DNA of 58,494 nucleotides from Gammaproteobacteria bacterium (GTDB lineage Bacteria; Pseudomonadota; Gammaproteobacteria; GCA-001735895). The stretch covers positions 1-58,494 of the forward strand of contig JBNKUM010000027.1 in NCBI GenBank assembly GCA_050298595.1, in the 5' to 3' direction. The notes beneath the pieces were generated by a model, which was not told the DNA's origin, made no database searches, and saw only the letters and a list, made by a program, of their open reading frames with translations. Position numbers and translations under genes: made by a program. This document shows, one piece after another, positions 4,820 through 51,562 of this stretch. Position 1 is the first letter of the stretch. The number at the start of each line of letters is the position of its first letter.

Positions 4820-5004
4820 GGGAGTATTTCCGGGCGCGTGGTTCTTACGTTTCAACAGTGGGCCTGGATGAGGAATATAAGGAGCGCTTGTATGCAGAGA
4901 GCAGGATTGATTCTACTTTTTATACTTATTTGAGATCAATATAACTGATAGCAAGTATAGAGCTGACTCTGGACACAGCATATTCGTCAAACCGCCATCA
5001 TCGC

Positions 5005-7967: not shown

Positions 7968-10900
7968 TTGTATAAGGAATTAAAAAGGATTTTTCGCAAC
8001 ACGATTCTGCTTGCGATAATATTTACCGCGTTTGTAGGGAATGTTAGAGCTATTACTGATGTCGATATTCGTACAGAAACCCCGTTAGGTTCCGGTAATA
8101 CTTCTAATTTCATTGCACATATCTCTGATTGTCGTGATCTTGTATCCATTCAGGTAGGTGATAGTAGTCAGCTCACTCCTTTTTCTCCGGCTGAAGCTAA
8201 TCGCAACCTGTCTTCTCCTACTGCTTGTGAAGTTGATTTTCAACTTAATGATAACAGCGCGGCTTCCCCATTGGTACAGCTTGAATTGCTGGATGGCGTA
8301 CAACAAACTCATACAGAACAGTTTTACTTCGAACGGGTTTCCCCAAAAATAAAACTCAGTGGTATAGGTATTAGAGCTGAGGGAAACAGGCAGTTCCTTG
8401 ATGTGACAATCGAGGCTTCTGATGATCTCGACATAAGTTATGTATCCGTTCAGGCGATGGGGATTCGTGCGTCGACTCTAAGATCTGCTGGAGGGGTCAT
8501 CGATGAAGCCAGGTCGAATTCTTTTGCAGATTCAAAAGGCTATATCCGTATCTTTCCCGATAGTGAAGATCAGACCCTATATAATACGTCAATTGAAATT
8601 ACCGCTCCTCTCTCTGCGGAGGTAATTGCCAGTGATGCGTTAGTGTTGCTGGATATGTATGTAGTTGATGCTAGTGGTAACCAGGCATCTCGTTCTGAAA
8701 TAAGATTTACTGGTGATGATGTCAGGGAAGATGTTCAGGGGCTGATCGCTTCCCCACAGAATATTATTTTCTCGAATGCGCTTGAACAGGTGCAGATTAT
8801 ACCCAGTCTTCAGTATCAGTTTAGAGGGCTGGTACCAACACCCGGTGCTGGCCGGGGGATTAGCTACGTTTCTTCTGATCCTGCAAAAGTCCGAGTAACC
8901 GCAGATGGTAGAGTCATTCCACTTGCAGAAACAGGTTCAACGGATGTAATTATTTCAGTAACCTTTAGCGGACAACCTGTTGTTGAAATACCGGTGTCTG
9001 TTGATTACAGTAAAAAACTGGTTGATTTGAAGGTTGATGGCATATCAGATGCAGATAATTTTCAATTGCCGGCATTGAATACTTTCATCCCTTTGCCGCC
9101 TTTATTAGGGGTGTTTGATGATGGTAGTACAGCCCCTTTAACTCCGTTACATAAAATCCAGAAAGTTGTTCCTGCAGGCGCGGAATCTTTACTCATTGTC
9201 GATGATAAACAGGGGCTTAAGGCTACCCTGTCTATTCCAGACAGCACGCCCCTGGCATTGTCGATTTCATTGCTCCAGTACCCTTCAATTGGCACTACAT
9301 TGAATGTGGTTGCGATTGATGCCGCTCCTGAAATTTCTTTTGAAATTGACGGTGTCGCGAAGGTTGGTAATACATTGACCTTAGTGGCAAAAGCCACGGA
9401 TGATGTTGGGGTCGAAAATGTTGCGTTCTGGATGGATGGTATTGTCATTGGCAGACGACTGTCGCCTCCTTATGAATTAACCCTGCCGCTTACAGAAGAG
9501 CTTGAAGGAAGAACATTAAGCTTTAAGGCGGTTACCGTGGATACTGCGGGTCAGGTTACTGAAACAGTCGATCAAGAAATATCTGTATCGGCTAGTTTTG
9601 TACCCCGAGTGCCAGAATTTGATTTTGAGTTACCAATAGACAATCAGCGTGTGATAGAAAAAACACCGTACAGGTTAGCGGTTTCACATCGCCTGGGCGT
9701 CATGCCTCCTGATGTCTATTCAAGTGGGATTTCACTAGTTGAGTTTTTTGCTGATGGTAGAAAAATAGGTGAATCATTTTTCCCGTCTATGGAAGAGCGC
9801 CCAAATGAAACTAATCCAGATGAAAAGGTACTGTTTGAAGTCTGGGCTTTGGAGGCTGAAGCACCAGAAATCTCGACCGCACAGACGTCGCTGGCTATTT
9901 CTGCAAAAATCCATAGTTCAAATGGCGGGCAAAAGGATGCGCCTGCAAAGCTAATTAAAATACTTGAAAACACGGCCCCTTCGGTGGTGATTTTATCACC
10001 GGTGAATGGCAGCATTGCTACGGTGGGTCAGACCGTCAGGGTTTCTGCGCAGATAGCTGATGATACATTAGCAATGGGTACTGAAGTCGAGTTATTGGTT
10101 AATGATGAGGTGGTTTCAAGTCTCAGGTATGAAGATAGTGAAACCCGTTTTAGTAACGCTATTACTCAGCAGACGGTGAGTAGATCATTTGACCTTCCTA
10201 TTGGAAAAGATCTGTTGGGTGAGACTCTGAATTTGAATGTCCGAGCCATCGATTATCATCAAAAAGCAATTACTTCAAGTGTACTCAGGTTACCCGTAAA
10301 AGGTGATCAACCACCCACTGTTGCACTTTCTCATCCGGTAGAAGGTCAACATCTGGTTTCAGGAACGTTATTAGAGATTCGAGCAAATGCAGTGGATGAT
10401 CTGGGCATTACTCGGGTCAATTTTTATGTAAATGACAAACTGGTCGGTTCTGATCAGCGTGCTCCGTATGCAGTTACTTATGAGTTGCCTGACGGAATTA
10501 TCAATGAGCAGCCACTAGGTATATATGCAGAAGCAGAGGATGCTGCAGGTCATATAAGCCGAAGCGTGCTAGTGAATGCAACCCTTGGCAAAGATGAAGA
10601 GCCTCCTGTAATTAACCTGGTGTCACCAGTGGTTAATCAAACGGATGCTGGTGATGATATTGCGGCAGTTGTTGAAAATAGTGATTTGGTAATAAAAGTG
10701 GCTGGCTTTGATAATGTGGGTGTTGTCAAGGTTGATCTGTTTGGTGTGCGAAAGGTTGACGGGAAAGGCTATGAGCTTACCGGCAACGTAGACGGGGATA
10801 ACCCCGATATCCTGAGCGGTGAAGATTTTCCCGTACAACAGATTCCGGGAGTGCTTAATGCTTACTCCTCCCTCAGGCTGGTGTCTACTCCTGCATTTAA

Positions 10901-13900
10901 AGATTCGTCTGGTGTCAGCTATGACCGATATCCAGTTAAAGCGATAGCTTATGACGATATTGGAAATAGCTCTGAGGTATCAGTCATTATCGGTGTCAGC
11001 AAGGATCAGGCACCTGAAATTGTAAAACTGGGTCTCGATAAGCGTGAATATCTTCCACGGGATAGTGTTGATGTTGAGGTGATTGCGAGGGATGATGTTG
11101 GTGTTTCTGCGGTCACGCTAGAGGTCTTTTCTGATGACGGAACCAGGCTTGTTACGATGACTCATGATGCGTCTACTAATCTGGTTCCTGCGCCTGATCT
11201 TGTAGATAGGTTCAGCTTTAGTTTAAGCGAATTAAATTTGCCTAATTCTGCTCAGATACTGACACTTAAAGCTAGTGCGACAGATAATCACGGTCTTATT
11301 TCGACGATATTTGAAAAACCTTTGTCAGTTGTTGCTGACACTACAGGACCGAATGCTGCTATTACATCTCCGACACTTAATACCATTCTGTATGTCGGTA
11401 AAAACTATACCTTTAACTATCGTGTGGTCGATGAATCCCGTATTACCCACATAGGTATAACTGCGAACGGCCAGGCCATTGTTGATAAAAATTTTACCGC
11501 GAATGATTTATCTACTTCGGTCAAAGGAAGTCAAGATTTTGTAGTTACTGCCAATGGCAGTGAATTACTGGTGACCGTCGAAGCGACAGATGAATTTGGT
11601 AAGACTTCCAGCAGTAACTGGCGCTATCAGGTGGAAACTGACCAGCCACCGGTTATCAGTATTCGTACTCCTGCTGCAGGCTCTCGCCTGGTGGAAGGAG
11701 AAGCATTTAGCATCAATGCACTGGTTACGGACGATAGAAAGGTCAGCAGTGTTCATTATATTGTTGTTCATTATGCTGTTGATGATAATGGGGTGTTGCT
11801 GGGTGATGGGGAGTTGCTGGTTGATGAAGCGGCTGATCAGGCTCAGATTCAATTGCTTAATAAAGGTGAGTATGCAGTCGAAAGAATGCGTGTTCCACAT
11901 CGTCCTGAGTCGGGTGTAACCCGAGTGGGTGTTAGAGCAACCGATGATGGAGGAAATACGGTTACTGAATGGCTCGATTTGACGATTCTGGATGATACTG
12001 AAGCTCCTGTGATATCTCTGCAAAAGCCGGATAAAGCTTTCTCAATACAGCCAGGTCAGCAATTTGAATTAAAAGGTACTTCTAATGATAATTTTTATTT
12101 AAATGATCCGGTTGTTGTTATGCTCGATGAAGCAGGGCAGGAGCATACCCTTAACTGGAAGAGATATGGAAGAAGCGAGCGCTTGCAGGAAGTTAGAGTT
12201 GCTAATCCGGGTACTCTTGGGTCTATCATCGTTGGAACTCGTTATCATGTCGACTTTGAAGGTTCAGTGGCTATTCCTGAGGAGTTTTTAATCTATCAGG
12301 GCCAGGTCATGCAGATGTTTCTGCGCACAGAAGACAATGGTATCAACACAGCTGAAACATTAAAAATTCCGGTCACTATTGAGTCTGACACTCAGGCCCC
12401 AGAAATCACTATCGAAAGTCCAGAGTCTATTTTGTATGAGCAACTTGATGCAAAGTTATCATTCAGTATTACCGATGATATAGAAATAGATTCTTATCAG
12501 GCATTTGTTAAGTTTGATAATAGTGATAAGCAACTGGTGAGTTCTGCAATGGCTGTCGGCCTTAAACGGGTCACAGTAGGAAATATTGTTTTCACTCCCC
12601 CACAACCGTTGGCTGATGGCACAGCTACAAGCTTTCATATTATTATCGAAGCGGTAGATACTAGTGGAAATCGGGAGCTCCATAGCGAACTGTTTGAAGT
12701 CAGGGAAGATACGCCACCGCAAGTATCGGTTGAAACCTTAATACCCGAAAAAGGACTGGTGACAGCTGAAACTTTATTTACTACTTTTAAAGTTGAAGAT
12801 GACTTTATTCAGAGTGGTTCTGGTTATAATCAGTTTATGCCTGTGTTCACTTCCTTGAGTGGTATGTCCGATAATGTTACTCGGCAGATAAAGGCAGCAG
12901 CTATCGCATTAACTCCTGATAACCTGGCTGTAATACCTGCTCTATCCGTCACTTATCCTGAGGGTAAGGGCTGGAATGGTTCCCTGCGTTTAGGTACCGT
13001 TCCGAACGAAGATACCTATATGCAGTTTAATGATGGCAAATTAGTAGTTTACCCGCAACCTAAAATGACAGGTGGGCTGATAAGTTTTGATGGTGACAGC
13101 TTCATGGCCAGTTACAGCATTGTTGCCTTTCAACGTGATATTTGTTCTGCTCAGGTGCAGCAGGTGAGTATGGCAACAGATATGGTACTGGATTTGTCAG
13201 CTTACTCGCCTGATGAATATTCATCTATCATTGTTACTCCGCACTTTCTAGCCGGCGGGCCTTCATTTATTAAACAAATTCGTGTTGATTATGAGCGGGT
13301 CGACAGACTTAATACTTTTGATATTGCTGGCCGTAAACACGAGGTCGCAGATTTTTCTCCACGGGTAAGTCTGATGATTCAGGATGACGGACCTGAAACT
13401 GAGCAGGCTTTCATAGAAAGTCGTAAAAACATTGCTCTTAATAATATTTCACAACAGATATCCACGGCTTTGCCAGTACCTCCATCTGCCGCTATAAAGC
13501 ATATAAATTTACTGGCAGTAGTGACTGACAGGCTGAGTTTACAACGAGGCATTCAGGAATCCCCTGTTCTGGCGAAGACCCTGGTGAATCTGGATACCGA
13601 GTCCCCAGTAATCCACGTTGATTCTCCCGCTCAGGGGACAGTATTGCTCCCTGATCAGCGTATTCCTTTGCAGATTAGCCTGGGTGATAATAGCGGTGTT
13701 GTTAAAAGCATAAAACTCTATCAGAACCGTTCAGAATTGTTGCGAGAATTTGGCGGTGTATATCTCGATACTGATTTAACTATTCCCTTCGATGTGCCCC
13801 ATGATTTCAGCTCTGGAGAACTAGAGTTGACAGCGATTGTTGAAGACGAAAGTGGTTATATTAATGAAAGCAGCGTGCGTTATCCGCTAGATACAAATGA

Positions 13901-16900: not shown

Positions 16901-19900
16901 CATCAGGATGGTTGTCGCTATCGAAGATATCGGAGTTATTGATGCTGTGACTTCAACCCTGATGCGAGAATATCAGAGTGTAGCAGGGCAGTGGATCGTT
17001 ACCGATCAGGTTGAATTACCCCTTTTCAGAGATGATTTACGTGTTAATGGAGATGACACGCCCGTGAGTGATCCCGACAATCATTATTTTATTTACTGGA
17101 GTGATTTTACTGCTGACTCTATTTTGAGACGTACAGCCGAACGAAATGAGCGTGTTCGGGTAATCACGAAAATTAGAACCCCAAATCATACCGTCACTAG
17201 TGAAACGTTTTATGAGGTTGGTCTAAGGCTAAGTGAACGCAGATTTATTGCTCCTTCTGAGGGGAGCTCTGCTGCAACTGATGTCTACTACACTGCGGTT
17301 GACCAGTTTCAAAGTGATGTACGTACTGGCCCGATGGTTACGGCCTGGTCGACCAAAGATCCTATGCTAGTGGAACAAAATCTGGGACAAGTTCCAACTG
17401 ATTCATCAGTTGAGTACACGGGTATTTATATACTCGATTCTATGGATGTCAATACTGGAAATGAGCAGGGAGAATATTATATTTATTCAGACCTTATGAA
17501 TGGTTCCAGTGAAATTTTTGCTGGCACTATTGGTGAAATTAAAGCGGATGCGAATGCTGTATTTGCTTCCAAATCTGGGACTCAATTATTAGTTAAAGAG
17601 TGTGCTGGAGGCTCATCTAACAACAAAGGATGCTCATTCTATAATGAGTTAAAGACTGAAATTCAAAGTGACTGGTTAGGTGGCAGCACCGGTAACGAAG
17701 GAACAGGTAAACTTTACCTGGATAATAAAGATGCTGAATTACTCATCTTTACCCCACAAAATGGGGATGCTCAGTTTGGCCTGCCCTATCTGTTGGCAGG
17801 GCGAGTGGATATGCCTTTCCGTGATGTATATGGACTTGATCGTAAAGATGATCTGGTATTCGTTGCTAATGGAAATGGTGGTGTACAGATTATAGATATC
17901 AGTAATTTTCAGGCTCCTTACCATATCGGGTTTATTAAGCCGAATGGTTTCTCACGAGATGTACAGATAAAGGGAGATTTTGCCTATATTGCGGCTTCTC
18001 ATGAAGGCTTGGTGGTTGCCGATATCAGTGACCCGAGCCTACCACTGGTTGCCAGGATAGATACACTGGGCGTTGCGAACCGCTTACAGATTGTTGGAGA
18101 CAGAGTATTTGTCACGGATATGGCGGGAGATGGTGGAGTCTCTCAACTGAATGTCATCGATATCAGTGACCCTTATCACCCTCAGATGGAAAAGGTTATA
18201 GAGTTGCATCCAGCTCGGGAAGATCTGGTATCTGATGGTGTGTATGATGTTGCAGTGTTGGGTAATAAAGCTTATGTCAGTGTGCTTTATTCTGATCAGG
18301 AAGATAAACCCGCACAGTCACTGATAGAAATTATAGATTTATCTCGAGCGAATGAAGATGCTTATGATGCTACTGTTCCTGCTGTCATTCACCGCGAAGC
18401 AAATCAAACAGACTTTGCGGCGCGTGGATTAACCTTTGCGCGTGGTGGTGTTCAAATAGCTGCTGGACATCAGGGAATAGCAAAACTGGATCTATCCCAG
18501 TTGACCGTCCTGTATCATCAGCCTGCCCTGGATCAGAGGGATGTTGTTACCAATCTAGATAAAATTTCAATTGAATTGTCAGCGGCCGTGGTTGCAACAA
18601 CTCAACTGAAGGATTATATCCAGGTGATACAGGGAGATCCTTTAATCGGCGTAGATGTAAGCAGTCAGTTTACTGCTCAATTTGCTTTAAGAGATGGAGT
18701 TCAGAAACTAAGTGTCATAGAGTTAATTCCAGAAGCTAGCTATGAACTGGATTCGAACAGTCAATATACGGTCATTGTCAAAGCTGGATTAACGCCTATA
18801 ACAGGTTTTGCTCTGGCATCAGATTATGCCTTTAAATTCACAACTTCTGCAGCGGGATCAGCATTAGCGCCCGATATCGTGTCCATCTGTGCACTTAATA
18901 GCATCCAGGCTGATGGAAGCTGTACCTCTGCAGGTGGGATTGAAGGTGGCACAACACTGATTATTAGAGGTACAAATTTTAGTAATCAACCCAGATTGAA
19001 AGTGGGTGGGCAGGAAATCCTGGTCGAATCGGTTGAAGCGGCAGGTAGCGTAGATGCATATGACAGGATCACGGCAACCACGATTCCAAACTATGCCGGG
19101 CCGGCTGCTGTTACGGTTATCAATGATGCAGGACTAAAAGATACAGTACTTGGCGGTTTTACCTATGTCGATTTGCTGCAAATTTCATTTATTACTCCAG
19201 CGGTAGTCAGTACTAATCAAAATGGGCTGAGTGAAACGGTTGAAATTATCGGGCTAGGTTTTCATGAAGGCGTGACGTTGAAGGCCTATAAGAGCAATCA
19301 TCCTGAATCAGCGATTTCTTATGCTGTGCAGGATTCCACCCTTACGCTGTACAGTGCAGAACGTATGGATTGGGTTGTACCGGACTTTGATGGTGAAGGT
19401 TCACAGAGTTATCGAGGTTTTATAGATGTTGAAATTAGCGATGATCTGGGAAGACGGTATGTGCTAAAGAATGCTCTGTTCTATGGGCGTCTGAGTCTTA
19501 ATCGAGTTATCGAAACAGAAAAGTCTTTTAGTAAGAGTTTTCTGGATAAAGAATTAAGCAGGCTTGCGGCAAATAATTCTGCTATTAGCGTTGGAAGCTA
19601 TGTTCCAGATTCGTTGAAATTACCACCTGGTGAAATTGTGTCTCTTGCTGCTGATGATGAACAGAAACTCATCTATGTGCTTGGGCGAGGTCTGCTAGGA
19701 GAGAAAGTCGCAACTTCTGATTTTGTCACTGATAACGCTTATATTCAGCACTATTACGCTCCAGGCTGGATAAGCCTGATACGTTATCAGCGTGATGACC
19801 TGAGCAATGCAGCACCCCGACATGGGCTGGGATATTTCAATTTGCCGCAGGATCTAGTGGCTATGGATCTGGCATTGGCGGAAAATAATGTTTATGTCAC

Positions 19901-22900
19901 TGCGAAAGGCTATAAGTTTCCTCACGTCAATACGCCACACAATAACCAGTCAGTATTGCTGGTTTATGATCGGCATGAAAATATAATCACCGATGGTGTG
20001 GAGCAACTGGAAGGTCAGAAACGAGATGTTCTTTACACACTTCCTTTACCGCTATCTGGCGCACCCGAACATATTGTTATTAAAGATAAGTTAGCCTTTG
20101 TTTCGACTTTTGAAGATGGCGTTGCGGTTATAAGTCTCGCTGACCCGCTTCGTCCGGCCGTCATAAGAAGGTTGTCACAGGTTTCTTTACGGGGTGTTAA
20201 CCGAACCCTTAACGCTAGTAATATAAATGTTATCGATAACCAGTTACACGTTATTGCGCAAGTCAGTTCTGGACGTAATAGGTCAACAATCGATGCTGTG
20301 TTTGATATTAGCCGCCCATCTATGCCTCAGATAGGAGTGTATGATTTTGCCGATTCTGAAAGTCAGCTTGAACCTTTTAGTCAACAAAAAAGATATGCGA
20401 ATGGCAACGCGCTGAATGTTATAGATTCACGCAACCCTTCCTATCAGCGCCTGCTGGGCCGGTACAATGGTTTCGGCTTTAATGTACCAGGTATCAGTAA
20501 AGGTGTTGGTACGCATACTACTTCAGCTATCAATATAACTCGTGAGAAAGTTAATGATCGAATCTGTAAAACTAGAGAGGATGCTTATTTTGGCATCTAT
20601 GATGCTAGTCGACTTGATGAAGAAATTATTTTACTGGATGCCCTAAGGGTGAAGCATGATTGCCTGCTACCTCAATCCAGCTCTTCGCAGTACGCAGGTG
20701 ATCTATGGGATCGAGACCCAACCCTATATACGGATGATGGCCTTGCAGTTTTTGCACAGAATGTGGGTGTTGAAGGTAAGCTCGCGTATTCCCGATTGCA
20801 CTTCGTGGATACACTAATTCAGGAGCTGGTTAGCAGTGAGCCATCGCATGCGCAGGAAAATGTGCATTTAGATGGTGCTATACAGCTCAAATTTACCTTA
20901 CCATTAACTCAAACGGTCTCCGAGCTTGGCGGGTTTGTAAGACTGGTCGAAGAAGATGGTTCAGCTTCGGGTGTAGATGTAGGGGCTACATTACTGGTAG
21001 ATGTATCTGATACGCGCATATTACATATTCAACCACTACAAAATCTCAAACAAAATACTGATTACAGTATCAGGTTGACAGGTGACCTGGGCAGTCGTCG
21101 TACCCTGGGTTTACTGGACCACAGTATTCCTTTTAGTACGGGTACAGCGACGGGTCCTGCAGTTAAGATTTTATCTGTTTCACCATCCGTCATTGATACG
21201 ACGGGAGGCTTACTGGATGTAGTTCTACAATATGCTGATGGAGTGCCCAGTTTTATTGTGGCGGGTGAAAATGCACCTGTTCAATCTCACGAAATCCTGC
21301 TGGATAACCAGATTCGTTATCAAATTTTATCCCCTGCTAACCTGGCTGGCCCCGCTGACCTGCTTGTCATTAATGGTAATGGCAGTGTGGATCGAATGAT
21401 AGGTGCCGTGCAATATGTAGAGCCACTGGTAGTAAGTAATTTATCTCCAGCCCAGGGATCTCTAAATGGTGGGACTCCGGTCATCATTAAAGGGCAGGGC
21501 TTTCGCCCTGGACTCGGCTCCGTACAGGTTAGTTTCGGTGGGTTTTACGTAAGCGCCGAGAATGTGACGGTTATAGATACTGAGACAATTCGTGTCATCA
21601 CCCCAGCTGGACGCATAGGCAGTGTTGATGTAGTCGTAGGCTTGAATAATGGCCAGCAAGTGACCTTACCGACTGCTTACAGTTATATGCAACCGGTACA
21701 ATCCAACATTAAAGGTAAAGGGCGAATCTATGATGCAGAAATGGATCCCAGTGGTACTTATCTACTTGCTGCAGCAGGTAGTGAAGGCGTGGTCATTTAT
21801 AATATCAGTGCTTCAACTAATACCAGTGATGAAAATAATCCGCTAAATTTAGATGACCTGCGTAATTTGATTGATCGTAACGATGATGGGAAAGACGACA
21901 GGATTTTAACATCAGTAAAGCTTCCTGATAACTATCATGCCATTTCATTGAATGGCTACTTTAAGGATGGTACGGATAGAGTCTTTGTGACTGCAGCCCA
22001 TCTGTCTAATAACGTTTATACTGATGCAAGATTGTTCGTGATTTCATTTGATTCAATGGATATTACGCAATCCATAGTGGTCGGCGAGCTTGATCTGCAG
22101 ACAGATATAGCCAGGGGATTAACTGTTAATGATAATAAAACAGTAATTGCTCTGGGCACTGCAGGACTTGGTGTAGTCGACAGTTACCTGCAAAGTAAGC
22201 TTTATCTTAATGGTCAATATGCTTTACCTGATAATAAGGCAGCACTAGATGTTACTCAGTTACCGCTAAAGGCTGGTGAGGTCACCAAATATGCGGTTGT
22301 GGCCGGTGAGTTTGACCAGGTCAACAATGTATTGCTAGAAACCGAGCGGGTCGGCGGTGGTGGCTTTTACCTGGTCGAACAGAATACTGAAAATGGTTTT
22401 AAATTGTTATCAATGCTGGATATACCAGCTAGTAAGGTATTGATTAAAGACCATTATGCCTATTTGTCAGCAGGTGACAGTGGTTTGGTTATCGTTGATA
22501 TTTCTGACCTGTTAGCACCTAAAGTGGTTGCTCGCGTTTCCGAATTCGAACATGTCTATGATATTTCTATAAATGGTAATGTGCTTTATCTAGCACTAGG
22601 AAATGCTGGTATTGTCACTGTCGACATCACCAACCCGAGAGCTCCTGTGGTTAGCAAGGGCATGGAAGCATATTCGGGAAATTTCATCGATATTGTTTTG
22701 GCCGATACTTATTCCGCTCTGGGTATAGGCGTCCCAGTGGGTTCTTCCACCAGTGTGGTACAGGTCATTCCAGATGTGGTACTGAAAATTCATCTGGTAG
22801 AGCCAGGCAATGGTATTTTAGATCAAACCAGTGATGGACAGATTCAGCTTGTCGCTCGATTCAATAAAGCCATTGACCAGTGGCCGGATAATTTAGCTCA

Positions 22901-37900: not shown

Positions 37901-40900
37901 TGAAGTTAATAATGAGCTGGGGCAAATTAATTACGTTATCGAAATGACAGATCGGGCATTGAATACATCCAGTGTAAGTAAAACTGTAAATGTCGTTAAT
38001 AATGCTCTTCCAACATTAGTAATCAGTCAGGCTCCGGACACAATACGTGAACAGGGAAGTTTTGAAATTTCTCTGAATGCGTCGGATGACGTCGGACTGG
38101 CGCAGCTGGAAGTCACCTGGAATGGATTGACTCACTCTTATGATCTGGATGCACGTGAGCTAAATAATTATAAAGTCAGTCTCACTGATAACAGGGCTCA
38201 GCGTGTGGTAACGGCACAATCTGAAGTTCTGACAGTTAAGATAATAGATCGTTTTGGCGAGCAGACATTGGCTCAGACCAGCATAGTTGTAGAGCCTGAT
38301 TTAGCACCTCAAGCTGACCTGTTGTCTGTGATCTCACCGTCCAATGCCTTTTACGGAACACAGGTTAAAATTAATCTAAGTAACCTCCAGCAGGTCGATG
38401 ATGGTAATCGCCTGTTGGTCAGGCTCATACAGGAAACGGCCACAGATGATGTTGTTCTGGGTGAGTATGAGCTAGCGAATCGCAGTAGTTTCAATTGGTA
38501 TTTTCGACTTCCCGCCAATTCACAACCGGATGACCTTTTTAGCTATAAATTGGCGCTCATTGACAGTTTGTCTCAGGAGTCGATGACAACGACTTATACT
38601 ATAGCTCTATCTCAATCTCCCAATCTGATTCACTTTAGTAATACCGATGTATCAACCAATCTTGATAGCGCAGCAGTTGGGCAACAGGCCGCATTTGAAG
38701 TTGAGGTGGTTGATGCTTCCGGTCAGCCAGTACCAAATCAGAATGTTCAATGGTCTTTGAGACGGGTGGACGATGGCCATACGACATATTTCGGCGCTTC
38801 ACAGACAGATGTTAACGGCTTGGCGAGTCAGTCATTAAGTATTAATCATATTGCAGGTAGTTATGAAATACGTGCATCTCTGCCACAGTTTCCAAATTTA
38901 GCTCAAGCTGTAAAAACATTTGAAATATTGCCAGGTGTTACTCGATATATACAAATATCAGCTATTCCTCAGGTTGCTGCGAATGGCACTATGGTTATCT
39001 CGTTACAGGCAAATGACCAGGCTAATAATGCTGTTACAAATGATGACAGCAGTACTATTCGTATCCAGGGCTCAAACACCGCATTTCACTTTGTCCCAGA
39101 GACAGGTGTTGTTGTTACTAACATCAGCGGTCCGAATGGAACTATTCAGCAGGCAGAAATCAGCTTAAGCAATGGGTCTGCTCAAGTTCAACTACAGGTT
39201 CCAACTGTTGCTGGAAATTACAACCTACCATTGATTGCTGGAGCTGGACTCGTTGCCAGAATTGAGAATACACCCGTTTCTAGCTTACCAATAACTGTCA
39301 TAGCGTCAGCTCCGGCACGTTTATTACTGGTCGATGAAAACCTGCAGCCACAGTTAAATGGGGGAGTACACGAAACGGATATCAAGTTACCATTACCCGT
39401 TTATTTAAGACTCTACGATGCTTATAACAATCCGGTGCAACAGCATGAAGGACTGGATGCCAACTATCAGGTATCTCTGTCCATCAATGGTACTGTCAAC
39501 CTTAACAATCATCCTAATGCGACAACAGTGACGCTTGATAAAGGCATTGCAGTGGTTGAGGTGCAGGGTACAATTTATGAAACGGTGACGCTTGATATCA
39601 GCGCCTTAACAGGCAGTACTGAAAACATTGATATTAGCAGTCAATATCAGATTCAATTTCGTCAGCGTCCTCCTGAACTGGCCACAGTTAAAATCGCGGC
39701 TGCAGTAAACCAGTCTACATTGCGCGGCTTCTTTAAGTTTGATGAAGCAGTAAGCCAGCAAGGTTCTGGTCGAATGGTGGCCATGAGCCATCTGAATGGA
39801 ACTGAGATTAGCGGAAGCTCCACTATTGATAATGACAGTGTCACATTTACCCCCGCATCAGCTGGCGCATTTACACTGGGTAACTGTTACAGCTATAGCA
39901 CTCAGAATTCTACTCTTGTTGGACTGGTGGATGATGATCCCGTCACTGCACAATCGGGTGAGGTTTGTGCACCTCAGGTCCTGATTCTACCTCCAGTCTC
40001 TCTACAGGTAACGGAAGGACAGGTGCTTACACTTGATTTTCTTACTGCATCTTCAGTGAATTTAAATAACGTCAGCAATGGTATGGCCCGATTAAACACA
40101 CGTGAAATGCCATTCAACTGGTATAAAAGCTACTGGTCGAATAATCGAAAAATCACTATTCCGCAGTATTCACTGGAAGAACCATTAGAAATTGGTGATG
40201 GTGATTTCATCAGCCTGAAATTGTCGGGTCATTTAAATGGTGAAGTCTTACATGTAGGCAATGAACTTAACCTTCAGGTTTTCGATCCAGAGGCAGATTT
40301 TGATGGAGATGGTTTGAGTAATGCGATAGAAGTCCGTTATGCTGGACTGGATCCAACTAATAGTGATAGTGATTACGATAATATTCCAGATGCAGCCGAT
40401 GATCTTGATCACGATGGCCTGATAAACAGTGATGAAGTTTTGCACAACACCCTGCTAGATGATGGAGATACGGATAACGATAATCTGTCAGATGGTAATG
40501 AAATCAATGTCTACAACAGCAACCCTAACTTGTATGATACAGATGGGGATGGCCTGAGTGATGGTGCTGAAGTCAATTCTACATCTCCTTCAGATCCCAC
40601 TCTGAAGGATACTGATGCAGATGGTATTGATGACAATATTGAAGTCCAGTATGGACTCGATCCGTCAAATGCCTTAGACGCAAGTGCCGATGCCGACAAC
40701 GACGGTTTGTCAAATCTGGACGAGGTATTAAATAGTACACGCATAGATATCCCTGATACTGATGGCGATACCTTAACGGATGGTGTTGAAGTACATGGTA
40801 CTCCTGCAACCAATCCACGCAGCAAGGACACTGATAACGATGGACTCGATGATAATCTGGACTATGACCCGATAGTTCCGGATACGGTTGCCCCAGTCGT

Positions 40901-43900
40901 ATCTGTAACAGCTCCAGACCTGACGCAGTCTTACCTGAAAGGTCAACGGCTTAACTTCACTTTATCTGCGCTTGACCAGGGTAGAGTGACACAACTGCTG
41001 TATCGTATAAATAATGTTCAGCAGCCAACGGTATTAACCTCTGAGCCATTCCAGCTTTCCATTCTGTTACCTACTGATGCAGATAGTATTGTATTTGAAG
41101 CTCTTGCAGTTGATACCAATGGTAATCAGGGAACTACGGGCGCTATTACTATTAACCTTATTGATGATCCGCTGACAACCGTAGTGGGTACAGTGGTGGA
41201 TAGTAATGCAGTACCGGTTGCAGGTGTGTTACTCAGCTTGAATAGCCAACAAGCTATTAGCCAGGCCGATGGCAGCTTTGTGATAAATAATGTCCCAGTG
41301 GCACATGGAGACATTACTGTACTTGCCAATGTGGTTATAAACGGGGTGAATTTCATAGGGGGTAGTAATACGGTTACACCCATCAGAGCGGGTGTGACTG
41401 ATGTGGGGCAGATACAGTTAATTCAGGATAAGATTACCGTGGGTTATTTAAATAACCGTTACAATGCGGGTCAGCCCTATCAGCAATTGATTATTCAACG
41501 TGCAGGTATGGAAGCGGTACAGATTACCGACCTTGGCACATTTGATCTGTCAACTATCGACATGTTAATGGTTGATAACAATCGCCGTTATGCCTGTAAT
41601 ACAAGCAGAACCTATTATGTAAATCGACAGAAAGTGTTCGACTGGGTTGCAGCGGGTGGCACCATGATCTTACATGAAGATCGTCCAGATTATTCCTGTT
41701 CTTACTCGGGTACTCTATTGCCTAATAATCCAGGAACCATTAGCTCAAACCGCAGCGGAGATAATATCTACCCATGGAGCATAGCGAATGATATAGCCAC
41801 AGGCCCTGGCGGTAACTTCACTGGCTTCTCTGTGAGTAACCTGGTGCTTGGTAGTGTTGCCTTCAATACATTGATAGCAGAAGCTACGCCTCTGGTGTAC
41901 AACTCCTTGCCCTATCAGGGATATGTGGTTGGCTTCGACTACCCATGGCAGCAGGGTCGCATCTATTACAGTACAGTAAGACTAGAATCAGCCTCTACAA
42001 GCTCATTGATGCATACTCAATACGCGCCAAATATGTTGAATGGCATGTTTTTACGCTCATTGGTAGATACTGATGCTGACGGCTTACCAGATCGTCTTGA
42101 GATTATGAATGGTACCAACATCAGTGTGGCAGATACTGATGGAGATGGGATGAGTGATGCGTTCGAAGTGCGTTATAGCTTTGACCCGTTATTGGATGAT
42201 GGCGTTGCCTTACTGGATTCTGATAATGATGGGGCGAGTAATATTCTGGAAAGCCAGTATGGCTCGAATCCGTCTGTTTTCGACACTGATCAGGATGGTT
42301 TATCGGATGGTGATGAAATACTTCATATCTTACCATCTGATCCAACTTTGATTGATACTGATTTTGATTCGCTACTTGATAATGTTGAACGTGATTACGC
42401 AACTGACCCACGCAACAAAGATAGTGATGGTGATACGGTTGAGGATGGAGACGAGGTTAATACCTATAGTTCAAATCCTTTATTGCTTGACTCAGATGGT
42501 GATGGCCTGGGTGATGCCCTGGAAATTAGTTATGGGCTTAATCCTGCAAATGGTACTGATGCTTATAGCGATAATGACTTTGACGGATTGACAAATCGCG
42601 ATGAGATACTGATATTCGGTACCGATTATAATAATGCGGATGATGATAATGATGGTTTGTCAGATGGCGATGAGATTGCAGCTGGTTCTGACCCTCACAA
42701 TCCAGACAGTGATAATGACGGTATTCCAGATGGTAATGATGCCGAAATTCTGATTGCAGATATTACACCTCCATTAATCCAGTTGACTTCTCATGCCAGT
42801 ACCATTGAAGCCGTAACGGGTGAAACCTTAACTTTTGCTTTTGATGTTACGGATAATGGGCAACTCGCTAGCGTCAGTATGACTAACACAGATGGAGGGA
42901 CTTCTATAGGCAGTGTAACTATGCCACCTTATAACCTGACCTTTACTGTCGATGGTTTAAACAGTTCCTATCCCTTGTATTTCACGGCTACCGATGTAAG
43001 CGGCAATGCAACAACTATAGGGCCGGTTACGATTAATCTGATAGCTGATCCGCTGACTCAAGTTATCGGAACTGTCGTTGATGAGCTGGGTCGTCCGATA
43101 CAGGGTGCTGTAATTAATTATCCAGGATCTATTGCAGAATATACCGATATAACAGGTCGGTTTACACTGTCATCAGTACCGACTGTAACCAGTACCTTGC
43201 CAATGAATATTTCTGCTCTGTTTGGTAATCAGCATGTTAGCACTAATATTAATGCCAATCTGGTGCGTGGAGATATTGTCGATGTTGGAATAATTACTTT
43301 AAAAATGGATTCTGGTTCACAGGGACAGAGTAACGGAGCAGATGTGATTGTGGGTTATTATGAAATGTCGACTAACTCTGGAAACTCTGCACAAATACCA
43401 TCAATTGAAGCTGCTGGTTTTGTAGCCCAAGATGTTGGTGATTTGAATACTAGCGATTTAACACAATTTGACATACTTTATGTTTCACAGCAAAGCTCTA
43501 CTTCAAGTAACTGGGTTAATAATAAAAACAAAATTGATCAATTTGTAAGCGCTGGTGGTGTATTGGTTTTCCATGACTGGTCTATTTCTTCTACGGCTGC
43601 CAGTTTACCTGGATCCCCAGGGTCATTCGTCTATAGTGCAAGCAATGATACTCAGGTGATAACAAGCAACGAAGCATTTATAAATGGGCCTGGTGGTGTT
43701 ATAGATGATACAACACTTGATTTGGGCAATAGCTCATCACATGGCTATGTTGATGCGAATTCCGTTCCATCAGGATCAACTGGTTTACTCAGTAAGAATA
43801 ACCCCGATCAATGGGTAACGTTTTCCTATCCATTTAATCACGGCTCGGTAATCTACTCAACAATACCACTCAGCCATTACCTGAGTGGAAGTGGATCTGC

Positions 43901-46900
43901 CGCATTCAGGGATGTATATGCTCCTAATATACTCAACTATGCAAGCAGTCTACTAATCGTCGATACTGACGAAGATGGCCTGTCTGACTACGATGAAGTC
44001 TTAGCGGGCACAGATTATCTGCTCGCAGATACAGATGGTGACGGCTTACTGGATGGATTTGAAAATCGTTATGGATTTGATCCATTAGTCACCGGTGAGC
44101 AATCCCTGGATACTGATAGTGATGGTCTAAGTAATATCGATGAGCAATCGAATTCAACGGACCCACTTAATGCTGATTCGGATTCAGATACCCTGTCTGA
44201 TGGGGATGAAGTGAATGTCTATGTATCAGATCCTACCTCGTCAGATGGTGATGAGGATGGTTTAGATGATGTGACTGAAATTAATCAGGGTACCAATCCG
44301 CTATTGGCAGATACTGATACCGATGGGTTGAGTGATTACGCTGAATTGTATACGCATAACACAAACCCCTTGAATCCTGATACCGATGGTGACGGTATGT
44401 CAGATGGATTTGAAGTAAATTATGGACAAGATCTGGATCCGATGGCAGATGATGATAATGATGGACTGAACAATCTTCAGGAATTCAATGCAGGTAGTAA
44501 CCCGTTTAATATTGACACGGATGGAGACCGGTTATCCGATTATGCTGAGTTTATTATTTATGGCACTAATGCAGCGAACAATGATACGGATTCAGGTGGA
44601 CGTCGGGATACAGATGAAATTTTCATCGATTCGACAAATGCAACTATTGATGATGACTTAACTAATCTCTCAGATACTTATTATTATCAACAGAATCAAA
44701 GTGGTAATAGTTGGCCAATACGCGACAGGGAAGGTTATTTGTATGATGGTTCGGTATTTAAAAATAGTTTCAGGTTGTATGTGAATAATTCCACTTATTC
44801 TGCTGAAGGATTTAATGGCTATACGGCAATAGATACTGCGGGGCAGGAACTGTTTTTTAATGTCGCTAGATTGAATGGATTGTTGGTAGGCAGACGAGTC
44901 TATGTGCCTACCGATGGCACAGAGTTTATTCGCTACCTGGAGGTATTACACAACCCCGGTACCCAAGCCGTATCGGCTACAGTACGTAATGACTCATACT
45001 ACTACAGCGGAAGCCCAGATGTATTGACACAATCGGGTGGCAACCAGCTGAGCTCTAATGATCAATACATGATGATTAGTGATTTAAATAATATTAATCA
45101 GCCTGTTGTTGGGCATATTTTTGCTGGACCCAATGCTGCAACAGGTATTAGTGATTCAAGTAACGCTCAGGATGGATCGCAGTCCTGGAGTATTACTCAT
45201 CAGGTTGAAATACCCGCTGGGGAAACTCGCTATATTCTGCACTTTGCCGGGCAGTATGACAGTACAGTTAATGCAGAAATCGGTATACAGAATATTAGAA
45301 AACTAGGTGGCAATGAGCTGGCTAACCTGTCAGAAGAAATACGCACTCGGATAGTAAATTTCAATGCCTATCCAGATGCGGATTTTGATGGATTAACTGA
45401 TATAGAAGAGACTCAACTTGGCACGTCGCTGGACAATAGTGATACCGATAACGATGGAGTTAATGATTACCTGGAAGTACAACTGGGTACCGATCCTCTG
45501 CAGCCGGGAGATCAACTGATTACGACGGTATCTGGGCGTGTAGTTAATGCTATCGGATCGGGTGTAGAAAATGCTATCGTCCTGCTTAATAATAGTTTTC
45601 AGGTAATCACGGATATAAATGGAAATTACACTATTCCTGATGTAGTGATTGACCAGCCTGTTTTCGATGTTATGGTTACAATGGATGTAAATGGAGTGGT
45701 AGTAAGCGTATCATTAAATGACATTGACCCAGTATTAAACGGCGATACGCTGCTCAATGAACTTGTGCTAAGTTATCAATCAATGTCAGATAGCAATATT
45801 GAAGAAATAACGGCGCTTAACTCAGGTACTGCAATCGCTCTTTCAGATGATTCCAGTAAAAGTGTTGTATTTACTGATGGCTTTAGTTTCAATTTCTTTG
45901 GCGAGACATATAGCAGTGTCTATATCAACTCCAATGGAAGTTTGACCTTTGGTGCTGGTAGCACATCTTATACCCCAGATGTGCCGGGCAACCTGGTACA
46001 GGGTACTCCGCGTATATCCCCACTATTTGGAGATCTAAATCCTTCATCCGGTGGGACCGTTTATTATAAACAGAACGCAGATAGTTTTAGTGCCACCTGG
46101 CTTGCTGTCCGTGAGTATGGTAATTCCTCAGTTCATACATTTCGCGTCACTCTTTTTGCTGATGGTGCTTATGTCATCCAGTATGGTGATGTAGATACTA
46201 CGTCAACCAGGAGATTCGGAGTTGGTGTTACACCTGGTGGTTCTTCTTTGTATGAAGCCATTGATTGGTCTGAAGCGGCGGGATCACTGCCAGTAGGTCC
46301 GGCCATGTATGAATTATTTTCAGGAATGGCAACATTCGATCTTGAAAACCAGATTATCGTATTTAAGCCAGAGTCTTCCAGTTATCGAATATTACGAAAT
46401 TTATGTGAAGATATAGATAATGATCGTTTATGTGACATTGAAGAGATGTTGGTAGGTAGTGTAGTAGGGAATGATGATACAGATGGCGATGGGATTTTAG
46501 ATGGTCGTGATTCTAATCCTCTAGTTTCAGATTTAATCGTTCCGCAGATAATGCTGCAGTCTCCATTGTTGAACGATTCTGTTATACGTACTGCGACGAT
46601 ACCTGTTGATATCGGCGTTACAGATCAGGGCGGACTGACCGAGGTTAGGGTTATTGTTGATACCACAGAACAGGTCCATACATTTAACGGTGAGCAGCAT
46701 GCTGTTATTCATCAAAGTTATGTCGTACCTTTAACGGCAGACTCTATCTCAATTTCTGTGGCGGCAACGGATCAATCAGGAAATATCAGCAACTTCGGGC
46801 CGATTGTAATACCTGCAATATATGACCCGAAAACTACTGTTAACGGTCAAGCAAGTTATTTCTTTGATGATGAAAGCGGAGATATTACGGAATTACAGCT

Positions 46901-49856: not shown

Positions 49857-49889
49857 CAACCAATCGAATAGTGAGTTTTGGAGAAATAT

Positions 49890-50696
49890 ATGTTGCGTAG
49901 TTTTATCCTGGTTATATCAGTTAGTGTTTTCCTGGTCTCTTGTAATAAAGAAGATCTGGTTGGAAAAGTTAATGGTCGAGATATATCTCGCACTCAATTT
50001 AATCATTACCTGACATTTAAAAATATTCCACAAGAAGACAAAAAACGCGTCGATATGATGCTAAAAGATTATATGCAACGGGAAGCATTTACTTCATTAA
50101 TTGAAAAATCGAAGGAGTTTGATGCAACACTGATAGAAACCGAGCTGAATGAATTTAAAAAGCAGATTGTGATTAGTAGATATTTTGAAGAGTATCTGAA
50201 GAAAAAGGTTAACGAGGAGGCGGTTAAAAATTATTACAATACCAGGGCCGAAGAATATCAGCGTGAAAAAATTAAAGTAGCGCATATTCTCATACGTACC
50301 AATGACAAAATGAGCGATGTGGAGTTACAGGCTGCATTGACCAAAGCTCAGGAAGCTTATAGTAAAGCTCGGGCCGGTCAGTTATTTGCTGATGTTGCGA
50401 AACAATACTCTGATGATACCGTATCGGCACGCCAGGGAGGAGAGTTGGGCTGGTTGAGTAAAGGAGCCATAGACCCTGTTTTTTCTGCACGAATATTTGA
50501 AACTAAAGCAGGAGAAATTTCAGAACCTTTTAAAACTTCATTTGGTTTCCATGTGGTAAAAGTACTTGAGAGCCCTCAGATTATTAAAATACCATTTGAA
50601 AAAGTAAAGGGGGATATCCTCTATCGTTTACGTCAGCAGGCGAAACAGGCTGAAATGGATCGATTATTGTCACAAGTAGAGATAAGTTATCTATGA
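49890..50696 (+). CDS. Parvulin (PpiC-type) peptidyl-prolyl isomerase lipoprotein, PrsA/SurA-like foldase
   Basis: ATG 49890 follows GGAG. Lipobox FLVS-C, VGKVNGRDIS helical N-domain, and rotamase motifs KVAHILIR, YSDD...GGELGW, DPVF and GEISEPFKTSFGFHVVKV. Confidence 0.92.
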   Translation: MLRSFILVISVSVFLVSCNKEDLVGKVNGRDISRTQFNHYLTFKNIPQEDKKRVDMMLKDYMQREAFTSLIEKSKEFDATLIETELNEFKKQIVISRYFEEYLKKKVNEEAVKNYYNTRAEEYQREKIKVAHILIRTNDKMSDVELQAALTKAQEAYSKARAGQLFADVAKQYSDDTVSARQGGELGWLSKGAIDPVFSARIFETKAGEISEPFKTSFGFHVVKVLESPQIIKIPFEKVKGDILYRLRQQAKQAEMDRLLSQVEISYL

Positions 50697-51562
50697 AAAT
50701 AGTTGTGGCAATGAAATTAATTATATTGTTGACAGCGGTGGTTGCCTGTAAACAGGAATCTGATGGCATTAGCCATATTGAAGCGGGTAATGCTAGTCTT
50801 AATAAAGACCTGGTAGTGGCTAAAGTAGATGATGATTTATTATATCAAAGTCAACTTGACCTGATGATGGACAAGTTAGCCTCTGGACAATCCGAAGAAA
50901 ACAGAGCCAGGCTTAAATCGACTATTTTACAGGGTATGGTTAGAACCAGAGTGTTGGCGAATTTGGCCGAGCAACAGCTAGATGATGATGAGATCAGAAA
51001 AATCAATGCGAAAGTAAAAAATTACAGGGATGAAATACTGGTTAAATCCTATGTGGAAAAAAATATAGTAGTAGAGCCAGTCACTGCAGAAATGATTAAA
51101 CAGTATTATCAGGAACATCTTAATGAATACGCAGAGCAGGGCAGGATTAACTTTGAATTTCTGGTTACTACATCACCCCGACTTGATGATGATATGGTTA
51201 GCCAGGTTATGGCCGAGTTTTCAAAAGCGAAAAATATTGATAACTGGCACTTATATGTTGACACGCTTAAACAAAAAAAAATACCGGTAGAGTTTAACTC
51301 TGTATCGATGCTCCCTGCATCTATCAATAAAGCACTACGTTCTCCTATAGAAAATTTGACTGAAGGTGAGGTTAGTGATCTTGTTTTTGGTGATTATATT
51401 TATATTGTTAAATTAATAAGCCGAGAGCCTGATACTTTTAAGCCACTCAAAGATGTCAGTATGGCAATACGAAAAAAATTAGCTCCGCAAAAATTTAAAC
51501 AAATGCTCACTCAGCATATCGATAAAGCCATGATAAGCAAACAGGTTGAGTATATTCAGTGA
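50693..51562 (+). CDS. Second PrsA-like lipoprotein with a degenerate parvulin domain
   Basis: ATGA overlap with the upstream gene (alternative start 50711). Lipobox VVA-C, VVAKVDD, VTAEMIKQYYQEH and LTEGEVSDLV...YIYIVKL. The two conserved parvulin histidines appear to be absent. Confidence 0.82.
   Translation: MKIVVAMKLIILLTAVVACKQESDGISHIEAGNASLNKDLVVAKVDDDLLYQSQLDLMMDKLASGQSEENRARLKSTILQGMVRTRVLANLAEQQLDDDEIRKINAKVKNYRDEILVKSYVEKNIVVEPVTAEMIKQYYQEHLNEYAEQGRINFEFLVTTSPRLDDDMVSQVMAEFSKAKNIDNWHLYVDTLKQKKIPVEFNSVSMLPASINKALRSPIENLTEGEVSDLVFGDYIYIVKLISREPDTFKPLKDVSMAIRKKLAPQKFKQMLTQHIDKAMISKQVEYIQ

Follow-up and report, generated by a model that had tools for sequence, protein, structure and literature searches.

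How a bacterium comes to carry an open frame of some 42 kb, and what kind of protein such a frame would encode, are the questions raised by the stretch of 58,494 nucleotides analysed here (the window), which is the whole of contig C27 (JBNKUM010000027.1) of the 5.49-Mb, 119-contig draft genome G000 (GCA_050298595.1) of a gammaproteobacterium. An earlier interpretation made from the letters only (the sequence-only reading) had seen in the window an unbroken open reading frame (ORF) of about 14,000 amino acids (aa), about 42 kb without a stop, and had proposed an old and selectively maintained polypeptide of about 1.5 MDa. Our comparisons show that the product of this gene, called the giant below, is a member of an uncharacterised family of proteins of 11,700-14,300 aa, in which domain order is preserved one-to-one across Gammaproteobacteria, Desulfobacterota and Myxococcota. 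The gene also stands at the head of a conserved, tightly packed five-gene cluster, which had not been foreseen.

In a listing of ORFs in all phases, positions 7875-49856 of the forward strand form a single open frame of 13,993 codons, which bears out the length first reported and is the sole long frame in the region; the one other ORF of at least 150 aa inside it (11565..12023, reverse strand) encodes 152 aa. Given the base composition of the window, stops are expected at 6.1% of codons, and the log10 probability of finding none in 13,993 codons is -382. From stop to stop the frame opens at 7860/7875 and comprises 13,998 aa, with candidate starts at TTG 7875, TTG 7899, ATG 7941 and TTG 7968. 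The last of these seems the most plausible because AAGGGG stands 7 nucleotides upstream, because two orthologues in genome G011 start at the same aligned codon, and because the product then opens with a typical signal peptide. Counted from this start, the product of 13,962 aa has a computed mass of 1.511 MDa, in agreement with the estimate of about 1.5 MDa, a pI of 4.3 and 20 cysteines. The gene has a G+C content of 43.2% (45.0% for the genome) and makes up 0.76% of the genome.

Many giant adhesins owe their size to near-identical tandem repeats. Tandem Repeats Finder, run at its lowest score threshold over 7000-58494, returned 13 rows, 11 of them within the giant and all of these at most 41 nucleotides. 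Comparison of the gene with itself (blastn, word size 11, E<=1e-3) gave eight off-diagonal rows, corresponding to four pairs of 32-84 nucleotides at 71-88% identity, all situated in the area encoding TSP3 repeats (40292-47225); the claim that there are no near-identical DNA repeats therefore holds. The 273-bp array of 8.8 copies in the neighbouring gene for protein A was picked up by Tandem Repeats Finder, so the method does see repeats where they are present. At the protein level, a blastp search of the whole product against itself returned the diagonal only. Chunk-to-chunk BLASTP gave 80 pairs, with a top identity of 49.6% over at least 60 aa, and 93 segment profiles made from the family alignment produced 207 profile-to-sequence matches inside the giant. 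The internal similarity of the protein is thus entirely old and diverged.

Used as the query in a word-indexed search, the first 5,000 aa retrieved 7 proteins among 2,432 candidates; five of the seven, all metagenome fragments, are matched in single BLASTP high-scoring segment pairs of 5,607-7,334 columns at 36-43% identity. Within the genus, strong matches were found in three of the 14 genomes searched (G000, G006 and G011), and two further genomes among the 41 searched gave weak matches to immunoglobulin-like (Ig) domains only. The orthologue in G006 aligns without gaps, is 71.0% identical across 13,578 residues and runs off its contig; the missing C-terminus, the last ~348 aa, was found on another contig of that genome (G006:C160). 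G011 carries two N-termini, 85% and 77% identical to that of the giant, and two C-termini, on four contigs. These contigs (C54, C57, C181 and C156) represent two diverged giants, the N-termini of which are 77% identical to each other with a synonymous divergence (dS) of 1.28; they may be paralogues, that is, two copies, or two strains binned together (contamination about 5%). One of the two is situated downstream of an RTX-repeat protein of 2,855 aa.

Beyond the genus, a survey in which each species was represented by a single genome identified 13 loci in 12 genomes, the carriers being Gammaproteobacteria metagenome-assembled genomes (MAGs), three Pseudomonas, Alkalilimnicola ehrlichii AK92 (G042), a Proteobacteria MAG (G044) and, further, Desulfosarcina, Desulfopila, Polyangiaceae, Sandaracinaceae and a Myxococcota MAG. 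In seven of the eight loci where both gene ends lie on one contig the giant is a single frame, and these seven span Gammaproteobacteria, Desulfobacterota and Myxococcota. Next to the 13,998 aa of our own frame (stop to stop), their lengths are 14,277 aa (G041), 14,275 aa (G043), 14,251 aa (G044), 13,467 aa (G047), 12,126 aa (G046) and 11,741 aa (G048). Homologues are thus not consistently split into several genes, G042 alone being broken. The giant is 39.9% identical to its counterpart in Pseudomonas sp. G34 over 13,284 aligned positions and 34.3% identical to that of G044 over 12,690; in the full-length alignments no 400-aa window before aa ~11,200 has more than 10% gaps, and the best-conserved stretch, aa ~2,000-4,000 across the border of zones 1 and 2 (Table 1), is 51-55% identical to Pseudomonas. 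Collinear homologues in three phyla, at 34-40% identity where aligned, argue for the age that had been supposed.

Estimates of synonymous and nonsynonymous divergence (dS, dN and their ratio omega, from Nei-Gojobori counts with a custom script) bear on whether the protein is maintained along its length. Over 935 residues, the giant and the copy on contig C54 of G011 show a dS of 0.735 and a dN of 0.082 (omega 0.11); for the copy on C57, again over 935 residues, the values are 1.687 and 0.145 (omega 0.086). Between the giant and its G006 orthologue (13,578 residues) dS is saturated (proportion of synonymous differences, pS, 0.77) with a dN of 0.21, so omega is not computable, and this pattern of saturated pS and low dN recurs in every 500-aa window. 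The Pseudomonas pair G041 and G043, which are 81% identical, gives a dS of 0.74, a dN of 0.136 and an omega of 0.18 over 14,166 residues, with omega between 0.07 and 0.24 in 25 of 25 windows of ~500 aa up to aa ~12,500. These ratios show purifying selection on the family along ~12,500 aa, and to that extent the selective maintenance proposed from the sequence has found support. The further suggestion that each domain has a distinct role would fit the one-to-one positional orthology and the lack of internal links within aa 7,250-10,750.

The C-terminal end of the protein behaves otherwise. From aa 12,530 on, identity within the Pseudomonas pair falls to 32-50% and synonymous sites are near-saturated or saturated (pS 0.66-0.80). 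The saturated synonymous sites mark a different and much older history: in this pair the C-terminal ~1,750 aa were swapped by recombination and are not merely under relaxed selection. The two Pseudomonas tips are 32% identical, and over the last 450 aa there is no mutual alignment among our own, the Pseudomonas and the G044 proteins. The last ~1,500-3,000 aa of the giant are modular and exchangeable, a property that the sequence-only reading did not anticipate. Four database relatives of the giant's own tip are known, at 45-81% identity. A structural model of the tip (mean predicted local distance difference test score, pLDDT, 61.8; 5-sequence alignment) was compared by VIA-align, the rows of which cover model residues 79-262 only: the Fn3/Ig-like domain is matched with Z 12.0 and a root-mean-square deviation of 2.3 over 88 aligned positions, and the transthyretin-like domain with Z 10.9. 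The third of the parts that the model resolves is a moderately confident beta region, followed by a poorly modelled tail (pLDDT <50 at residues 401-433 and 438-500), and the model defines no fold for the last ~220 aa of the tip. A search of the ESM Atlas with the C-terminal 350 aa gave no usable match, and the sole NCBIfam matches in the last 1,000 aa, to CglD and MtsD, were sub-threshold and driven by TSP3. Pfam, applied to four tips, detected no toxin family; its matches were confined to TSP3 repeats in two tips, and exceeded the Pfam cut-off in one of these. Neither reading of the C-terminus nor a scan of the whole protein for hydrophobic runs revealed a C-terminal hydrophobic anchor in the tip.

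Could so long a frame be a product of assembly? Of the words sampled from 25001-35000, a fraction of 0.91-0.99 is present in each of four DNA runs from one study, two of which may be the source. In every one of these runs Logan contigs fill all 30 bins of 19001-39000 without indels or joints, the only irregularities being bubbles of single-nucleotide polymorphisms (SNPs), indicative of two haplotypes, and, in run X1, two loose ends each formed by a single contig; the Logan pieces are short (<=6 kb), and none spans the whole 19001-39000 stretch. A stronger argument than the runs is that independent assemblies of other genomes yield the same 42-kb gene, and we conclude that the giant gene is not an assembly artefact. 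Assembly-driven expansion had been thought unlikely on first reading, and the collinear assemblies and the clean runs agree with this.

To describe the architecture of the protein, Pfam was scanned with 46 overlapping 600-aa pieces (the last of 493 aa) at E<=0.01, with a finer scan of the core, and zones were drawn from Pfam, the chunked BLASTP and the 93 segment profiles (Table 1). Apart from the signal peptide, no run of at least 14 hydrophobic residues is present in the whole protein. The N-terminal module has no match in Pfam or in NCBIfam (null over the first 1,000 aa), and a PDB sequence search with the N-terminal 500 aa gave a single chance-level match (E 0.21). Searched against 1.84 billion cluster representatives, the module matched 247 proteins at E<=1e-3, of which 107 reach E<=1e-30. 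For the majority of the 150 relatives listed, the match begins near the protein's own start, the rest being 5'-cut fragments or weak Ig-domain matches; the longest relative has 6,269 aa, and most are clearly fragments.

Within-zone profile matches number 42 in zone 1 (best E 4.6e-13) and 31 in zone 2 (best E 3.4e-13), where relatives of the LVIVD-type propeller are found by profile at five places, near aa 3,300, 4,035, 4,830, 5,560 and 6,030. Zone 3 has no within-zone match, and only 7 of the 207 matches touch it; a PDB sequence search with aa ~7,170-10,170 found nothing at E<=0.01. The AlphaFold2 model of part of this core shows beta-sandwich domains flanked by two propeller-like regions (model residues ~30-300 and ~700-1200), and its top Foldseek matches are LRP2, Sevenless, ROS1, the tandem WD propellers of Utp21, and DDB1 (E 1e-17 to 1e-13). 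Of these, LRP2 (megalin) and Sevenless/ROS1 are the best structural matches, being likewise strings of propellers split by small beta domains. We claim no homology here, the likeness being one of architecture only, at 8-14% identity and with TM-scores of 0.10-0.19, which are low because relative domain positions differ. Zone 4 contains 22 DxDxDGxxD motifs and 119 within-zone matches (best E 1.1e-36) between copies that are at most 50% identical, and its supermodules are of the calcium-binding kind.

Taken together, the profiles and models show that the giant is a string of many different beta-sandwiches broken up by several propellers, five recognised by profile and two by model. Tandem Ig-like domains (Big_7, DUF4625, Big_5, TIG and Big_1) form a stalk along the chain. 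If each beta-sandwich is ~4 nm long, the extended chain would measure some hundreds of nanometres. The signal peptide, the 20 cysteines, the pI of 4.3 and the Big_7, DUF4625, LVIVD, TIG, Big_5, Big_1/MG, TSP3_bac, CarboxypepD_reg and NIDO domains are those of a protein of extracellular type.

Table 1. Features of the giant and of the genes around it (window positions).
Feature	Position	Strand	Description
Giant gene	7968..49856	+	13,962 codons plus stop, from TTG 7968
Sec-type signal peptide, ~28 aa	7968..8051	+	Basic n-region and hydrophobic core, then VRA ahead of the predicted cut; assigned by eye
N-terminal module, aa ~29-465	8052..9362	+	Family-specific; conserved Cys55/Cys87
Zone 1, aa ~450-3,000	9315..16967	+	Diverged Ig-like domains: Big_7, DUF4625, Big_13
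Zone 2, aa ~3,300-7,250	17865..29717	+	Diverged repeated supermodules: LVIVD-type beta-propeller, Big_5, IPT/TIG
Zone 3, aa ~7,250-10,750	29718..40217	+	Unique core; sparse Ig matches (TIG, Big_5, Big_7, Big_1/MG) between family-less stretches
Modelled stretch, aa 8,481-9,680	33408..37007	+	All-beta; AlphaFold2 mean pLDDT 70.4, 6-sequence alignment
Zone 4, aa ~10,760-13,560	40245..48647	+	Supermodules: bacterial TSP3 repeats, Big_7, CarboxypepD_reg; one NIDO match
Lineage-specific tip	48648..49853	+	Fn3/Ig-like domain, transthyretin-like domain, ~240 aa beta-rich without family match
Parvulin isomerase 1 (PPI1)	49878..50696	+	Lipobox-like LVSC; starts 21-30 nt past the giant's stop
Parvulin isomerase 2 (PPI2)	50693..51562	+	Rotamase_2; lipobox-like VVAC; 4-nt overlap with PPI1
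Protein A, 2,002 aa	51656..57664	+	Sec-type signal; variable N-terminal part, conserved C-terminal ~800-1,050 aa
Protein B, 5' part	57665..58494	+	Sec-type signal; continues on contig C12 (142-8515), ~3,067 aa in all
7TMR-DISM sensor with GGDEF diguanylate cyclase	5005..6882	-	Divergent upstream gene

The giant, PPI1, PPI2, A and B follow one another with intergenic gaps of 21, -4, 93 and 0 nucleotides, and this order recurs in G041, G043, G044 and, fragmented, in G042, where the downstream A and B are also in pieces. PPI1 shares 47-53% identity with its positional counterparts in G041, G043, G044 and G042, and a homologue (44-52% identity) stands directly after the giant in G046, G047 and G048. 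PPI2 has a weak EpsD-like match, below the cut-off. The conserved part of protein A carries Glucodextran_B, Big_7 and CarboxypepD_reg; its N-terminus elsewhere consists of TSP3 repeats (Pseudomonas) or Ig domains (G044). The tandem array noted above (51863-54252, 81% matches) encodes beta/gamma-crystallin repeats in this protein, and no other sizeable DNA repeat occurs in the window.

Protein B runs from C27 into C12, the two contigs being joined by an exact overlap of 141 nucleotides, and homology to the B proteins of other genomes crosses the junction. Its N-terminal ~940 aa are conserved in the cluster, at 31-35% identity across lineages, and its C-termini differ; a search of the ESM Atlas with the N-terminal domain returned only leads below 0.8. 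In our genome the conserved N-terminus is followed by DUF6531 (E 5.7e-9), 20 RHS repeats (E 1.2e-140) and a variable C-terminal domain of ~350 aa, the makeup of an Rhs protein, the last part having a weak match to the AHH nuclease family (E 0.02, 15.3 bits with a cut-off of 22.3). Elsewhere, the C-terminus is a DUF900 hydrolase (G044) or gives Big_1 and Invasin_D3 Ig-like matches (Pseudomonas). The first ~940 aa of the Rhs protein are thus common to non-Rhs proteins at the same place in other genomes. A 187-aa gene of DUF4303, which we take to be an immunity family, follows our protein B and may be its immunity gene.

Upstream, the neighbourhood varies: the GGDEF sensor found here is replaced by a hybrid kinase in G044, by a helicase or a PhyH gene in G011, and by other genes elsewhere. 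We considered a link to cyclic di-GMP through the GGDEF gene as a feature of the family and rejected it, as the upstream genes differ in all other lineages examined. In three of three Pseudomonas loci a divergent gene for the secretin GspD lies upstream of the giant, and the genes beyond GspD differ. Our own genome has a full operon of gspC, D, E, F, G, H-like, I, J, K, L, M and N on contig C62.

On this evidence we think it rather probable, with reservations, that the giant is a Sec-exported and isomerase-assisted extracellular fibre with an exchangeable tip. The chain would cross the inner membrane through Sec, as the signal peptide suggests, and two membrane-tethered isomerases would keep it competent for secretion or folding in the periplasm; parvulin chaperones help large secreted adhesins. 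It would then pass the outer membrane via a secretin or type II route. Passage of this kind is suggested by the adjacency of GspD in Pseudomonas, and the giant combines a Sec signal, read by eye, with a type II system in the same genome, as type II substrates do. Outside the cell it would make up a fibre stiffened by calcium and measuring some hundreds of nanometres, its conserved N-terminal part being cell-proximal and its exchangeable C-terminal part binding to another cell or to a surface. Each of the proteins A and B has a conserved and a variable half, and both would probably associate with the fibre.

A precedent for the association of genes, though not evidence of homology, may be seen in Omnitrophota, where, as reported by West-Roberts et al. 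in 2023 (bioRxiv 10.1101/2023.11.21.568195), giant genes adjoin type II-like gspD/E/F and a conserved Rotamase_2 isomerase, and one class of giants is rich in bacterial TSP3 repeats, with a role in adhesion or predation proposed. The Omnitrophota giants differ in belonging to another phylum and in their domains, with glycosyl transferases and TPR in one class and dockerins in a second, which is rich in repeats and breaks up on assembly. A full-text literature search found no description of the giant family (supplements, which may list members, lie outside such a search), and the excerpts of PMC11573180 make no mention of it.

Several observations weigh against an extracellular fibre secreted in this way. 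Pfam detects no domain for outer-membrane translocation or anchoring in the giant, A or B: there is no two-partner secretion (TPS) domain, autotransporter or other C-terminal beta-barrel, RTX, PEP-CTERM or type IX secretion (T9SS) tail, nor a TpsB/CdiB-like partner of a type V system in the giant or its neighbours. No sorting motif of the PEP-CTERM, GlyGly-CTERM, LPXTG or T9SS/Por kind is present, and the last 300 aa have no Pfam match. Adjacency of the secretin is confined to Pseudomonas, since the gene is not adjacent in our own genome, in G044, in G011 or in the Desulfobacterota and Myxococcota loci examined, and we know of no precedent for type II passage of a 1.5-MDa chain. Both the signal peptides and the lipoboxes were recognised by eye; the cell-proximal end would be assigned from conservation alone; and the structural models are of middling confidence (pLDDT 70.4 and 61.8, from 6 and 5 sequences), with the last ~100 aa unresolved. 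The genome is a draft in 119 contigs from a population with SNP variants. The giant is found in only three of the 14 searched genomes of the genus, and so is dispensable within it. Finally, one homologue, that of G042, is broken by three frame changes, near positions corresponding to aa 4,848, 5,463 and 8,607-8,706 of the giant.

This last locus (C23:1404-40813) is collinear with the giant, reads as five consecutive frames of 4,797, 623, 3,095, 3,094 and 1,632 aa, and represents either a decaying locus or an error-prone assembly. It could be taken to favour a polyprotein, that is, one frame translated and then cut into several working proteins with no functional 1.5-MDa chain, as could the sharp differences in domain content between zones, although nothing direct speaks for such processing. 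The breaks are frame changes at arbitrary places and not at conserved boundaries, one frame is kept in all the other loci with both ends on one contig, and the Pfam scan of the giant found no protease domain or conserved cleavage motif; we regard a polyprotein as highly improbable. A less improbable but still decidedly doubtful alternative is that the Sec-exported chain stays in the envelope as a structural band or ruler of the periplasm. This would account for a Sec signal unaccompanied by any recognised signal for outer-membrane secretion or anchoring, for partner isomerases that resemble periplasm-facing lipoproteins, and for a length that is tight within lineages (13,962-14,277 aa in five gammaproteobacterial or proteobacterial loci). 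However, arrays of TSP3, Ig-like, NIDO and propeller domains with a hypervariable tip are typical of extracellular binding proteins, a secretin gene adjoins the giant in Pseudomonas, and the patchy presence within the genus is unlike that of a core envelope part.

The fibre might also serve as a contact-dependent weapon or a device for prey capture, reaching and binding a target while the variable halves of A and B act as payloads. The Rhs architecture of our protein B behind its 940-aa conserved N-terminus, with its weak AHH match and the DUF4303 gene next to it, is what such a reading would lead one to expect, as are the DUF900 hydrolase that ends the G044 protein B, the conserved N-termini and differing C-termini of B across lineages, and the exchange of the giant's tip between close relatives; in the Omnitrophota report (10.1101/2023.11.21.568195), giant proteins are proposed as tools of predation. 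The giant shares with Rhs/WapA and CdiA proteins a conserved N-terminal bulk with an exchangeable C-terminal end, and protein B of the cluster is in our genome itself an Rhs protein. The giant differs from these polymorphic toxins in that none of the tips examined contains a toxin family, Pfam detects no TPS domain or CdiB-like partner, and the gene next to it is, in every lineage examined, a conserved isomerase and not an immunity-like gene. Moreover, the Rhs fusion was seen in this lineage only, Pseudomonas B having Big_1 and Invasin_D3 matches alone, DUF4303 is a putative immunity family, and a physical link between giant and B is hypothetical. We therefore consider a weapon unlikely, if the least unlikely of the alternatives to a fibre of the kind favoured above.

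The known systems that the giant would most resemble in its working are the giant fibrillar adhesins. LapA of Pseudomonas, the 1.5-MDa ice-binding MpIBP and SiiE are likewise megadalton, acidic chains of Ig-like sandwiches that involve calcium and presumably reach and bind, and both MpIBP (5irb, 4p99; listed by Foldseek) and SiiE (2yn3; listed by VIA-align) are among the generic structural matches to the giant's Ig domains. An ordinary repeat-expanded type I RTX adhesin of this kind would thus match the size and the Ig-like and calcium-binding content. Those proteins, however, lack a Sec signal, have RTX repeats with a type I signal at the C-terminus, consist for the most part of near-identical tandem repeats, and are encoded next to genes for an ABC transporter, a membrane-fusion protein and TolC. 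The giant has a Sec signal, no near-identical repeats and domains diverged to at most 50% identity. HemolysinCabind, the RTX nonapeptide family, was matched neither in the 46-piece Pfam scan (E<=0.01) nor in the last 300 aa (E<=1), and no ABC transporter, membrane-fusion or TolC-like gene occurs among the nine neighbouring ORFs of the window or in the clusters of G041, G044 and G042. The reading as an RTX adhesin is contradicted by these data, as is that as an assembly chimera or pseudogene by the collinear independent assemblies and the four runs without indels or joints; we give this pair the least credence of all. With fibrillar adhesins in general the giant shares a long Ig-like stalk and a distinct, more variable terminal region, but it is far longer than most, has propellers interposed, and consists of stalk domains that are positionally orthologous and not interchangeable. 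Pfam finds no recognised anchor or known adhesive domain in it, the tip being without a family match.

The fibre with its isomerases thus remains the reading we prefer, and what we rate as new is an extracellular giant sized by ~12,500 residues of positionally fixed, non-repeated domains, together with a distinctive conserved cluster. The size of most megadalton surface proteins of bacteria comes from recent, near-identical repeats, with a drifting repeat number and broken short-read assemblies. The giant family represents the opposite design, in which ~12,500 residues of non-interchangeable domains stay in fixed order under purifying selection across phyla, which implies that each domain's position and identity matter. 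It also poses a problem of secretion, namely how a Sec substrate of 1.5 MDa is folded and moved across a Gram-negative envelope, for which the cluster offers candidate helpers in its pair of dedicated parvulins and in the secretin encoded next to it in Pseudomonas. Because DNA repeats are absent the gene assembles intact, and since a cultured carrier is on record (Pseudomonas sp. G34) the family should be experimentally tractable.

The half-conserved, half-variable partners, an Rhs toxin among them, hint at a modular delivery system. A more speculative possibility, which we think unlikely, is that the five genes together specify an undescribed Sec-dependent surface machine: a half-micrometre fibre of ~100 positionally fixed domains with two dedicated lipoprotein isomerases, an exchangeable binding tip and two partners that dock by their conserved halves and bear payloads in their variable ones. 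With equal reserve, these payloads might be an Rhs nuclease-type toxin here, a hydrolase elsewhere, and arrays of crystallin, TSP3 or Ig domains in A. Were this true, Gammaproteobacteria, Desulfobacterota and Myxococcota would share a new way of capturing prey or of antagonising other cells on contact.

Some further features of the genome were noted. Between the GGDEF gene and the giant lies an unusually long non-coding leader of 1.1 kb (6883-7967). Rfam gave no match at gathering score in the window and one chance-level match in 6800-8100, so the leader contains no cyclic di-GMP riboswitch; a promoter scan of 6800-8100 gave five sites, no excess over shuffles (3.2 +/- 1.8), and no terminators. 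In the type II operon (G000:C62:84015-95446), a rhomboid-family gene stands between gspF and gspG, which may be an arrangement of the rhombosortase type. About 2 kb beyond the Rhs gene, contig C12 encodes a 251-aa PEP-CTERM protein with a GEVED domain (G000:C12:10508-11263, reverse strand); the genome therefore has PEP-CTERM/exosortase sorting, which the giant does not use. Finally, four contigs of the same genome, C105, C10, C11 and C92, are open end to end or nearly so (3,207, 2,378, 2,362 and 2,131 codons), and are probably fragments of other very large, perhaps repeat-rich, unassembled genes.

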